A stretch of 64,000 nt of DNA from an uncultured Eubacteriales bacterium. Lineage in GTDB: Bacteria; Bacillota; Clostridia; Lachnospirales; Lachnospiraceae. The stretch covers positions 195,100-259,099 of the forward strand of contig UQNS01000001.1 of NCBI GenBank assembly GCA_900542465.1, given 5' to 3'. Below the pieces are notes generated by a model. The model worked only from the letters and a program-made list of their open reading frames with translations, did not search any database and had not been told where the DNA came from. The translations under genes and the position numbers were made by a program. This document shows positions 41,618 through 44,784 of this stretch, piece after piece (the stretch's first letter is position 1; each line of letters starts with the position of its first letter).

Positions 41618-43078
41618 ATGTTATTAAACTTCGACATGGAGACAAGACGGATTAATGAGATCATACAGGCCGGAGCGGGGACAAGAATGGCGGATATATC
41701 TTTTTTAGAAAAAGAGATAGATGCCTTTTTAAACTCAAAAGATCGATTACATATGCTGCAAGGGGCGCTGTATTACGACTATGAGCAAGAAATACTTAAG
41801 AAAAAGAGGCTTGTTATCGGCGAAGGGGGAGACCTGGAGGAGGATAAGCAACTCCCTAATTACAAGCTGACAGATAATAAGTATAGCGAGATGGTAGACC
41901 AGAAGGTTAACTATTTGCTGTCAAACCCTCCGACTTTTAGTTCTGAAGACACGGAATATGTTGACAAACTAAAAGAGATATTCAATCGCAAATTCTTAAG
42001 ATTATTGAAGAATGTCGGCAAAGATTCTTACAACGCTGGTAAAGGTTGGATATACGTCAATTACAATGAGCTTGGCGAACTTAAGTTTAAGCGATTTAAC
42101 CCTTGGGAAATTCTTCCGTTTTGGAAAGATGATGATCATACCGAGCTGGAAAGCTTTGCAAGAATATATGACATAGAGGGGTATGAAGGTCAGATCAAGA
42201 AAACATTCACTAAGGTTGAGTATTACGACACAGAAGGAATACATTACTTCGATTTAAAGAGTGGAAAGCTTATCCCGGAATATAAGTTGAATTACCTGGA
42301 AGCAGTTGATGAAAACGGAAATATGACGCCGTACAACTGGAAAAAAGTGCCATTGGTAGCTTTCAAGGCTAACGGATATGAGTCGTCACTGCTGAAAAAA
42401 TGTAAGTGTTTACAAGACGCCTTAAATGAAATTTTATCTTCTTTCATGGATGGAATGATAGAAAATGCATCCGGGAATACGATCATTGTTATAAAGAACT
42501 ATGCTGGCGAGAATTTAGGGACATTCAGAAAAAATTTAGCACAATATAAAGCTGTTAAGGTCACCTCTAATGATCGTGGTGATGGTGGTATAGATAAGCT
42601 TGAAATAGAAGTTAATGCAGAGAACTACAAGATAATTATTTCAGAGCTTAGAAAGGCTATTGTTAGCAACTGCAAAGGATTTGATGAAGATGAATTAAAA
42701 GCATCAGGCAGTCCAAATGAAATGACGATTAAATCAGTTTATTCAAAAATAGACCTTGATGCTAATGAGATTGAGTCGGAATACCAGGCATCTTTTGAAG
42801 AACTTATGTGGTTTATTGATTCACACATTGCAGGGTTTAAAGGTCCAGTAGATCACAAGCCGGTTAGTATAGTGTTTAACCGAGACATGCTAGTTAACGA
42901 AGCTGAGGTAATAGCAAATTGCCGAGATTCGGACGGGGTTATTTCAAGAGAGACCATTATTGCTAAGCACCCTTGGGTCAACGATGTAGATCTGGAAATA
43001 TCACGATTAAAAGAAGATAGAGAGTCTGAGACACCATACCATAACGAATTTAACCAGCCAGGGGCAGGTGATGCGTAA
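41618..43078 (+). CDS. portal protein, SPP1 gp6-like
   Basis: Size and order after terL; SPP1-type portal signature region. Confidence 0.8.
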   Translation: MLLNFDMETRRINEIIQAGAGTRMADISFLEKEIDAFLNSKDRLHMLQGALYYDYEQEILKKKRLVIGEGGDLEEDKQLPNYKLTDNKYSEMVDQKVNYLLSNPPTFSSEDTEYVDKLKEIFNRKFLRLLKNVGKDSYNAGKGWIYVNYNELGELKFKRFNPWEILPFWKDDDHTELESFARIYDIEGYEGQIKKTFTKVEYYDTEGIHYFDLKSGKLIPEYKLNYLEAVDENGNMTPYNWKKVPLVAFKANGYESSLLKKCKCLQDALNEILSSFMDGMIENASGNTIIVIKNYAGENLGTFRKNLAQYKAVKVTSNDRGDGGIDKLEIEVNAENYKIIISELRKAIVSNCKGFDEDELKASGSPNEMTIKSVYSKIDLDANEIESEYQASFEELMWFIDSHIAGFKGPVDHKPVSIVFNRDMLVNEAEVIANCRDSDGVISRETIIAKHPWVNDVDLEISRLKEDRESETPYHNEFNQPGAGDA

Positions 43079-44784
43079 TGCAAAGTTCAGACTACTGGGC
43101 AAAACGCTTTAAAGTCTTGGAGAATGCATCAAACAGAACTGCTAAAGAAGCTTATGCAACACTGGAAGATGTGTTTTCAAAAATGGGTAGTGAGTTAGAC
43201 AAGGAGATCCTAGCCTGGATAAAGCGAATTGCTAAGAATAACAATGTTAAGTTAGTAGATGCTAGAAAAATGCTTACCAAAAAGGAACGCAAAGAATTCA
43301 ACTGGGATGTTCAGGAGTACATCAAAAAAGGGAGAGAGAATGGTCTTAGTGGTGAGTACTTAAAAGAGTTAGAGAATGCATCGGCTAAGTATCATATTAA
43401 TCGCCTAGATACTCTAAATCTTAGATTAAAGAATCTTACAGAAACAGCCTTTAATACAGAGCATGCAACTATCAACAGCATGCTTAAAAAGGTTTATACA
43501 AATAACTACTACAAAAGTCTTTTTGAAGTGCAAAAGGGGTTCAATATTGGTTTTGATATAGCTCAAGTGGATACTAACCTTCTGGATAAGCTTTTAACTA
43601 AGCCGTGGACAAACGATAATCTTAACTTCTCTGATAGAATCTGGATGGCCAAGGACAGAATGGTGCAAGATCTACAGCAAGAGCTTGTAAGGACTTGCGT
43701 GCTGGGCAAGTCTCCGGATGAGTCAATCAAGCGTATGTCTAACTTTGTTAACAAAAAGGTTAAGAATGCAAAAATGTATGCTTCTCGGTTGATCATGACG
43801 GAACAAGCAGCATTCCATGCCAGAAGTCAAGAGGATGCCTTTAAGGAGCTTGATATTGAAGAATTTGAGATAGTAGCAACACTTGATAGCCATACTTCTG
43901 AGATCTGCAGAGAGATGGATGGAAAGCACTTTCCAATGGAGGAATACAAGATCGGCATAACCGCTCCACCATTCCATGTTTATTGCAGATCAGTAACGGC
44001 TCCATATTTTAATGATGAGTGGTCAGCTGGAAAAAGAGCTGCAAGGGATGAGAACGGAAAGACTTATTATGTTCCATCGGATATGACTTATCCGGAGTGG
44101 AAAAGAAATTATGTTACTAAGTCAAATAAATCTATTGTCAGAGAAAATAATATTGAAACGAAACTTCCTTTAAGTGGCAATGATAAATCTAATTATGACC
44201 AAAGCAATGAGGCTATAAGCTTAGAAGTGGGCGAAAATAGTACTAACAATATTGTTAGTCTGAAAGGCGAAGATACAAATTTAAAAACAATATTAACCAA
44301 GGAAGAGCTATCTGCACTCACAAAATATATAAGCTTTGATTCTTATATAATCAATGATATATTAAGAAATTCAAATCCGGTGGAGCCACTCAAAAACATC
44401 TTTAGTGAAGAACAATTAAGTTTAATACATAACATAGATTCAGCCTTATCTAAGCTGCCAAAGTACGAAGGTAATTTACTTAGAGATATACAATTTAAGG
44501 GTCTTCATAACGAAGAAAAATTAATTAAAAATTTTGAAAAAAATCATCAGATTGGTGGTATAATTACGTACAAGGAATTTATAAGCACAACAACAAAAGC
44601 TTCTTACCATAACAATCCTTCGTTTAGAATTTATATTCAGAACGCTAAAAAAGGCAAAGATTTAAGAGCCTTAAATGAAGCTGAAGGGGAAGTTTTATAT
44701 GAAAGAAATACAAGCTTTAGAGTTCTTAATAAAGTAAAAGATGAAGAAACAGGTATTGTAAATATATTATTGGAGGAATTATGA
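43078..44784 (+). CDS. head morphogenesis protein (SPP1 gp7/Mu F-like) fused to C-terminal C2/C3-type ADP-ribosyltransferase domain
   Basis: N-terminal Mu-F region. C-terminal ART motifs: YxxxxYxxINxxLR (TKYISFDSYIINDILR), STT (FISTT), ExE (EGEVLY). Confidence 0.8.
   Translation: MQSSDYWAKRFKVLENASNRTAKEAYATLEDVFSKMGSELDKEILAWIKRIAKNNNVKLVDARKMLTKKERKEFNWDVQEYIKKGRENGLSGEYLKELENASAKYHINRLDTLNLRLKNLTETAFNTEHATINSMLKKVYTNNYYKSLFEVQKGFNIGFDIAQVDTNLLDKLLTKPWTNDNLNFSDRIWMAKDRMVQDLQQELVRTCVLGKSPDESIKRMSNFVNKKVKNAKMYASRLIMTEQAAFHARSQEDAFKELDIEEFEIVATLDSHTSEICREMDGKHFPMEEYKIGITAPPFHVYCRSVTAPYFNDEWSAGKRAARDENGKTYYVPSDMTYPEWKRNYVTKSNKSIVRENNIETKLPLSGNDKSNYDQSNEAISLEVGENSTNNIVSLKGEDTNLKTILTKEELSALTKYISFDSYIINDILRNSNPVEPLKNIFSEEQLSLIHNIDSALSKLPKYEGNLLRDIQFKGLHNEEKLIKNFEKNHQIGGIITYKEFISTTTKASYHNNPSFRIYIQNAKKGKDLRALNEAEGEVLYERNTSFRVLNKVKDEETGIVNILLEEL

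Follow-up and report, generated by a model that had tools for sequence, protein, structure and literature searches.

A prophage minor head protein with an ADP-ribosyltransferase domain

The window analyzed here is a 64,000-nucleotide stretch of contig UQNS01000001.1, assembled from an uncultured Eubacteriales bacterium. It contains a prophage in whose head module, directly 3' of the portal gene, lies a gene for a minor head protein of the MuF (SPP1 gp7) type fused to an ADP-ribosyltransferase (ART) domain. We refer to the gene and its product as MuF-ART. A short open reading frame (ORF), S1, follows it, and the scaffold and capsid genes come next. The features on which the argument depends are the following (aa, amino acid positions; pLDDT, predicted local distance difference test).

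43078–44784, + strand: MuF-ART gene, ATG start, 568 aa; its product joins a minor head protein to an ADP-ribosyltransferase
43078–44127, + strand: MuF/SPP1-gp7 head domain, aa 1–350, with its Pfam core (aa 198–307) at 43669–43998
44128–44274, + strand: disordered linker and cassette junction, aa 351–399, pLDDT below 50
44275–44781, + strand: ART domain of the R-S-ExE type, aa 400–568, PF03496, pLDDT above 90
44482–44484, + strand: codon for R469, the NAD-binding Arg of the R-S-E triad; invariant, pairs with the Arg of Tre1 (a solved ART, see below)
44584–44592, + strand: codons for S503-T504-T505, the STS motif; S503 invariant, pairs with FMSTS of Tre1
44683–44691, + strand: codons for E536-G537-E538, the ExE catalytic motif in the ARTT (ADP-ribosylating turn-turn) loop; both glutamates invariant, pairs with E-A-E of Tre1
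44781–44978, + strand: S1, a 65-aa ORF in ATGA overlap with the ART stop codon; candidate binding-type immunity protein or inhibitor
45005–45039, + strand: terminator-like hairpin with a 12-bp stem (hairpin 45005–45033) plus a T-run, between S1 and the scaffold gene

Both halves of the protein matched family models above their cut-offs. The Pfam model Phage_Mu_F (PF04233) aligned to aa 198–307 with an E-value of 5.4e-12 (46.9 bits against a cut-off of 29.6), and the NCBIfam model TIGR01641, phageSPP1_gp7, matched with an E-value of 2e-22 (79.6 bits against 39.65). ADPrib_exo_Tox (PF03496) covered aa 401–566 with an E-value of 1.3e-9 for the full protein and 4.4e-11 for the isolated C-terminus, scoring 38.1–42.9 bits against a gathering cut-off of 23.4. 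PHROGs 595, 115 and 2841, all described as minor head protein, cover the protein end to end. These results agree with a first-pass annotation of this DNA, which had called the ORF, at the same coordinates, a head protein joined to an ART and had read a C2/C3-exoenzyme ART signature in its C-terminus. The identical protein is present on 13 contigs, and NCBI names it 'minor capsid protein' (MDU0938773.1); as it has no other annotation, public records give no sign of the toxin domain.

Active site and predicted structure

Conservation was scored over 91 aligned relatives, all of them full-length and none shorter than 380 aa. Six columns, L457, G465, R469, S503, E536 and E538, are invariant, and Y417, Y423, N426, L429 and R430 are each conserved in at least 90% of the sequences. 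The latter five residues make up the YxxxxYxxINxxLR helix that the first-pass annotation had read as part of an exoenzyme signature, while R469 and S503 fall in two further elements that it had named correctly, the Arg region LLRDIQ and the STS motif in the form FISTT. The ExE motif, too, is present and invariant, but it had been placed at E534-A-E536 and lies instead at E536-G-E538. Lack of conservation of the catalytic glutamates had been put forward as a reason to abandon the assignment; E536 and E538 are the same in every sequence of the alignment. The best sequence matches in the PDB were 6DRE_B and 6DRH_B (phmmer, E 6e-10), with R469, FISTT and E-G-E aligned to their counterparts. The ART assignment is far beyond chance, and a degenerate or merely structural ART domain is ruled out by the invariant triad. 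Based on the intact, family-wide invariant R-S-ExE site, we infer that the predicted ART is catalytically competent, and the ExE motif, together with the characterized enzymes Tre1 and Bxa, points to arginine as the residue that it would modify.

The predicted structure is consistent with this view. A single-sequence model of the ART domain reached a pLDDT of only 39; the AlphaFold model of the full-length protein, built on the 91-sequence alignment, reached 80.8, with values above 90 across the ART domain (aa 400–568). The domain adopts the ART fold in this model, and the MuF domain is made up mainly of helices and has a small beta core. Comparison with the PDB by Foldseek returned 135 matches at E ≤ 1e-3, and the best 50 of the 135 are all ADP-ribosyltransferase structures. 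The top matches were again 6DRE_B and 6DRH_B (E 7.5e-12, target TM-score 0.76, root-mean-square deviation 2.9 Å, 26% identity), followed by CDTa, Plx2A, C3bot/C3lim, iota Ia, VIP2, XopAI, ExoS and the ART of Listeria Lmo0066. Entries 6DRE and 6DRH hold the Tre1-Tri1 pair of Serratia proteamaculans, in which Tre1 targets R174 of FtsZ as well as other bacterial proteins (PMC8120803).

The ART family and exchange of toxin domains on a common backbone

A word-indexed homolog search gave only 4 matches to the ART domain; an exhaustive HMMER search over cluster representatives with aa 375–568 recovered 827 representatives at E ≤ 1e-3, 357 of them at E ≤ 1e-10. A single close relative shares 83% identity with the window's ART, and the remaining representatives share 32–51%. 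Pfam recognizes ADPrib_exo_Tox in 84 of the 91 relatives used for the alignment. Head-associated N-terminal domains account for 88 matches among the same sequences (57 Phage_Mu_F, 22 Phage_min_cap2, 7 VG15 and 2 portal), so that the fusion partner in this ART subfamily is overwhelmingly a phage head protein. MuF domains were counted here by Pfam scan, single-sequence phmmer with the MuF half having under-detected them (46 of 154). The family also has larger multidomain members, namely P0073 (1592 aa) and P0074 and P0101 (about 870 aa each), as well as two carriers of NUDIX domains and the two portal fusions; these recall the 'polyvalent' head-packaged proteins of Iyer et al.

Among annotated phages, the two halves of the protein have different nearest neighbors. 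For the MuF half these are phiC2, CDMH1 and phiMMP01, phages of Clostridioides difficile that share about 45% identity with it across aa 1–351; for the ART half they are two other C. difficile phages, phiCDKH01 and phiCD24-1 (41%). The complete MuF-ART layout is found also in Lactobacillus phages phi jlb1 and Lj771 and in Streptococcus phage Javan1. Particularly informative is gp04 of phiC2, which is 44% identical to the window's protein over aa 1–358 and then continues with an Ntox50 domain (E 1e-33) in place of the ART. Homology to the phiC2 backbone ends at about aa 352–358, at the disordered linker, and the 66-aa ORF that follows gp04 is unrelated to S1. This comparison shows that the toxin domain and the downstream ORF were exchanged together, at the linker, on a common MuF backbone, and such a cassette swap is the hallmark of polymorphic toxins. 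At the nucleotide level, megablast of positions 40000–47000 against 50,697 phage records returned zero matches, and by tblastn 12 phage records match the ART domain at E ≤ 1e-3. A search of genome contigs and viral contigs with the full protein gave pattern matches among which no relative was confirmed. Near relatives of MuF-ART turned up in metagenome assemblies.

A small ORF translationally coupled to MuF-ART

S1 begins within the end of the ART coding sequence in an ATGA overlap, and a GGAGGA sequence at 44772–44777 lies 3 nt before its ATG. On the strength of this overlap and the Shine-Dalgarno sequence we accept S1 as a gene. Promoter-like sites around it are not above chance (6 found against 8.8 expected), and an internal promoter for S1 is therefore unsupported. 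Taking the overlap and the chance level of promoter-like sites together, S1 and the ART are probably transcribed and translated together. The hairpin on its 3' side has a predicted free energy of −21 kcal/mol (z −4.9), a value reached by 0 of 200 shuffles. As it is located inside the head operon, this hairpin may set the ratio of the packaging/MuF transcript to the capsid transcript.

No family in Pfam, NCBIfam or PHROGs matched S1, nor did it show similarity to the small ORFs from phages phi jlb1, Javan1 and phiC2. Its homologs are all close (72–92% identity) and sit after the same MuF-ART lineage at every locus with upstream sequence present. They have two alternative C-termini, KRDREMFKKAKKNEKKS versus KKHTEALDKLQENK..., and the DNA homology of the window to three related loci (L006, L010 and L013) stops exactly at 44939, inside S1. 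The alternative C-termini and the point at which homology stops indicate a putative recombination junction within S1, at 44939–44940. We regard S1 as a candidate, as yet unproven, for a binding-type immunity protein or inhibitor of the ART.

A second family of small proteins beside MuF-ART genes

A profile built on the small proteins that follow MuF-ART in phiCDKH01 and phiCD24-1 defined another family, S2, which comprises 40 clusters (P0184–P0223) of 40–86 aa, all of them 'hypothetical', and corresponds to phrog_8857 and phrog_12755 ('unknown function'). Its conserved motif is P-R-W-x-D-x-P...I-G-[YH]-x-E-I-[SP]-E-E-E...L-K-K-I-G-V. S2 lies directly 3' of MuF-ART in every context examined, that is, in L017 (Paenibacillus, CP115484), L018/L019, L020/L021, L016, phiCDKH01 and phiCD24-1, and is the second small ORF in L006; it is thus a consistent partner of MuF-ART. 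In phiCDKH01 (L003, 3949–4818) and phiCD24-1 (L014, 2949–3818) there are three S2 paralogs of 58, 71 and 58 aa, arranged in the order MuF-ART, 58-aa S2, a 76-aa orphan fragment of an ART C-terminus (38% identical to window aa 492–568), and two further S2 paralogs. Lying inside the head module, this arrangement looks like an orphan toxin/immunity array.

By tblastn with S2 proteins, the window has no S2 gene. L006, its closest relative, has S1 and then S2 after MuF-ART, whereas the window carries S1 only. A core of the form P-x-x-I-I-G-Y...P-E-E-E...K-K...R-E is visible in both families. Comparison of shallow profiles of S1 and S2 by hhalign gave a probability of 0.4%, and S1 scored 2.0 bits against the S2 hidden Markov model, a score reached by 44 of 1000 shuffles. 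Against a deep S2 profile, hhalign produced a colinear alignment with a P of 0.007 (2 of 300 column shuffles), at a probability of only 5%.

Several of these loci have further peculiarities. L006 (1–7207) is a decayed prophage in which MuF-ART, S1 and S2 stand beside a fragment of the portal gene and another MuF gene, which is truncated; scaffold and capsid genes have been lost, and a lysin and a host gene lie shortly downstream. That the toxin pair persists in so decayed an element may be due to selection or addiction. At other loci, cargo occupies the interval from MuF-ART/S2 to the scaffold gene, namely a Tad2-like and an Rv2179c-like protein in Paenibacillus L017 (3217–4606) and a holin and amidase in L018 (3258–4197), and this position seems to be an insertion hotspot.

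The prophage

The element that carries MuF-ART is bounded by an exact direct repeat, and the following parts of it were placed.

22729–61548: whole prophage, about 38.8 kb, bounded by an exact 37-bp direct repeat
22729–22765 and 61512–61548: the 37-bp direct repeat, attL/attR; the first copy, next to the integrase gene, overlaps the 3' end of tRNA-Thr
22673–22744: tRNA-Thr
22840–23988, − strand: integrase gene
39172–39444 and 39431–39673, − strand: ParE toxin gene (E 1e-15) and DUF6290 antitoxin-like gene, between the replication module and the terminases
39874–41563: small and large terminase genes
41618–43078, + strand: SPP1-type portal gene, PF05133, the end of which coincides with the start of MuF-ART
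45142–45729, + strand: scaffold protein gene, PF06810, E 1e-42
45747–46841: Gp13-like capsid protein gene

A Pfam sweep of the prophage ORFs identified, in addition to the integrase, an S24/HTH repressor and more HTH proteins, a replication module (DUF2800, PD-(D/E)XK, PolA, VapE and SNF2), contractile tail genes (sheath, tube, tape measure and baseplate J) and lysis genes (holin and a GH25/LysM lysin). The integrase, the S24 repressor and the att repeat of 37 bp mark the element as a temperate prophage, apparently intact, that is integrated at tRNA-Thr. A 21-bp repeat (22814–22834 and 61379–61399) lies just inside both prophage ends. ADP-ribosylhydrolase families were looked for as well: none of ARH, macro or NADAR was found in 47 prophage ORFs (batch scan, E ≤ 1e-4) or in the ORFs of the head module and of ParE, which were scanned singly or covered by precomputed hits; outside the scan lay the host flanks and a small number of ORFs of about 45–65 aa.

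Comparison with known systems

MuF polymorphic toxins were defined by Jamet et al. (2017, BMC Biol 15:75; PMC5576092), who found them solely in temperate phages and prophages, mostly of Firmicutes, within the packaging module. ARTs make up 14% of their 191 toxins, an ORF of less than 150 aa follows 89%, and delivery of the toxin with the DNA was hypothesized with T4 cited (PMC5576092). The window's protein shares with these toxins the MuF N-terminus, the position after the portal gene, the variable C-terminal toxin, the temperate setting and the small ORF below 150 aa. The architecture is the same throughout; the difference lies in the ART sequence, whose subfamily shares only 40–50% identity with other cluster representatives apart from one close relative, and in S1, which is without a described family. 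Iyer et al. (2022, PMC9503650), grouping by profile methods, noted MuF fusions for many ARTs of the Alt/VIP2 family and considered their packaging and injection probable.

Two MuF-ARTs have been studied experimentally. EFV (Q838U8) of Enterococcus faecalis V583 is a 487-aa protein with a phage-minor-head-like N-terminus and a C2-like ExE ART (Fieldhouse et al. 2010, PMC3000352); its toxicity in yeast was lost in E461A/E463A, and the comparison with T4 Alt was made explicitly (PMC3000352). Like the window's product it is a Firmicutes prophage protein of about 490–570 aa with a C-terminal ExE ART, encoded beside portal and scaffold genes, but at 487 aa it has a short linker, and its toxicity was assayed in yeast only. 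No Enterococcus phage record matched the window's ART domain at E ≤ 1e-3 (tblastn), and the ART domains of EFV and the window are therefore distant. Bxa, a MuF-ART of the Bacteroides stercoris prophage PhiBxa, modifies arginines promiscuously and kills E. coli (Alexei et al. 2024, JBC; PMC11699363). It is countered by Bsi, through binding, and by BAH, an ARH1-type hydrolase, through reversal, and has been reported to be released from cells, to affect both bacteria and epithelial cells, and to promote colonization (PMC11699363). Judged by its published description, Bxa resembles the window's system in being a prophage MuF-ART fusion with adjacent small ORFs, one of them encoding Bsi, and its demonstrated arginine specificity is of the ExE type. 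It differs in its length (869 aa), an extra middle domain, a host among the Bacteroidota and the hydrolase BAH, and Bsi, at more than 92 aa, is longer than the 65-aa S1. MuF-Apk2 toxins are likewise provided with one immunity protein of the binding type and one of the hydrolase type (PMC12226406).

Tre1 is the closest solved structure to the window's ART by both sequence and fold, has the same R-S-ExE site and modifies arginines of bacterial proteins. It is, however, a type VI secretion effector rather than a virion protein, and its immunity partner Tri1, a hydrolase of the DraG-like kind, has an N-terminal extension that occludes; nothing comparable to Tri1 was found in the scanned prophage ORFs. 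Alt of phage T4 is an R-S-E ART that resides in the phage head, is injected with the DNA and modifies host arginines immediately after infection (PMC8120803). We take it as a functional model for the window's protein, one that would work alike without being a demonstrable close relative: no T4-like phage is among the 12 phage records that match the ART domain. In contrast to the window's phage, T4 is virulent, and Alt is not a MuF fusion. Its own N-terminal sequence directs Alt to the prohead.

Proposed mechanism and alternatives

We consider it quite probable that MuF-ART represents the MuF polymorphic toxins in a prophage that is temperate and contractile-tailed, and that it is an arginine-specific ART that is packaged by means of its MuF domain, silenced by S1 in the producing cell and injected into the next host. 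The N-terminal gp7/MuF domain would act as the minor head protein, joining the portal as the head is assembled, with the linker of about 50 aa tethering to it a C-terminal mono-ADP-ribosyltransferase of the C2/C3/VIP2/Alt-Tre1 clade. MuF-ART would be made late, together with the coupled S1, which may bind the enzyme and thereby silence it in the cell that makes it, as Bsi does with Bxa. A few copies of the fusion would enter each capsid through the MuF domain, in the manner of SPP1 gp7, and at the next infection the ART would exit with the DNA and ADP-ribosylate arginines on bacterial cytoplasmic proteins. The outcome might be an altered host physiology or an altered lysis-lysogeny decision. 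Capsid-packaged delivery similar to that of T4 Alt, which the first-pass annotation had also favored, is a reasonable proposal, and the same hypothesis has been published for the MuF-ART class.

Several observations weigh against this account. None of the papers on MuF toxins cited here demonstrates that such a fusion is packaged or injected, and Bxa, as described above, has been reported as a released protein that acts on epithelial cells. The characterized relatives Tre1, Bxa and Lmo0066 each have an ADP-ribosylhydrolase as partner; the scanned prophage ORFs yielded no such enzyme. Keeping in mind that the closest relative, L006, has S1 and S2 and the window S1 only, S1 alone may not be the inhibitor. 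Finally, the link between S1 and S2 is weak and only suggestive, and we do not claim that S1 belongs to the S2 family.

Release at lysis offers a different role, in which the fusion or the freed ART would serve as a fitness factor by modifying proteins of animal host cells or of neighboring microbes, as for Bxa. We judge this unlikely, although it can draw on the behavior of Bxa, itself a gut-prophage MuF-ART, on the killing of yeast by EFV, on the origin of the window's host, a metagenome-assembled genome, and of its close relatives in metagenome assemblies, and on the proximity of the ART fold to the eukaryote-targeting C3, iota and CDTa as well. The best match in sequence and in structure alike is nevertheless the bacteria-targeting Tre1; neither the fusion nor the adjacent genes supply a signal peptide or a binding or translocation component, and the ART has no obvious route of entry into a eukaryotic cell. 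Still less probable, in our estimation, is the high-toxicity model of Jamet et al., in which virions would carry a lethal ART into non-lysogens as an interbacterial weapon and S1 would shield lysogens. The layout of toxin and small ORF is that of a polymorphic toxin-immunity pair (PMC5576092), the orphan ART fragments and S2 arrays of phiCDKH01 and phiCD24-1 resemble orphan toxin-immunity arrays, and the decayed prophage L006 still holds MuF-ART, S1 and S2, all of which would fit such a weapon. What weakens it is the position of S1, which overlaps the ART stop codon within the late head operon and, having no promoter signal above chance, is not likely to be made while the lysogen is repressed; moreover, a phage that kills the cell into which it has injected gains nothing unless it is defective.

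The ART fold might also serve another chemistry, the domain acting mainly as an NAD+ glycohydrolase or as a DNA-, RNA- or tRNA-modifying ART, for example against NAD-dependent or nucleotide-signaling defense. R-S-E ARTs do include enzymes that modify DNA and RNA (PMC8120803), conflicts over NAD and ADP-ribose in phages have been stressed (Iyer et al. 2022, PMC9503650), and two ART relatives carry NUDIX domains. The motif is, however, ExE rather than QxE or a single E, which is the signature of arginine-specific protein ARTs (PMC3000352, PMC8120803), and the closest characterized relatives, Tre1 and Bxa, modify protein arginines; we give this possibility very little credence.

Returning to MuF-ART as a packaged and injected effector, we tentatively advance a further proposal about its partners, which we think possible but hold with some doubt. 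S2 and, as a divergent member, S1, encoded just 3' of Firmicutes MuF-ARTs, may be an undescribed family of non-enzymatic ART inhibitors that are coupled to the toxin, silence the enzyme in the producer cell and are left behind at packaging, so that the enzyme would be armed only in the next host; the lineage would then be one that does without immunity by an ADP-ribosylhydrolase such as Tre1, Bxa and the Listeria pair rely on.

Implications

The architecture and the delivery hypothesis have already been published, with EFV and Bxa as the two MuF-ARTs characterized experimentally; the architecture is textbook in this field, and current understanding is unchanged by our findings. They add a Clostridiales gut-prophage example to the MuF-ARTs, a class whose role is debated between an injected effector, a competitor-killing weapon and a host-directed fitness factor. 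The new content is modest and lies in the S1 and S2 partner proteins and in the finding of no hydrolase partner in the scanned prophage ORFs. S1 and the S2 family are short candidate protein inhibitors of arginine ARTs, and without a hydrolase partner MuF-ART and its small neighbor would constitute a simple two-gene system for studying how phages silence a toxin that they package.

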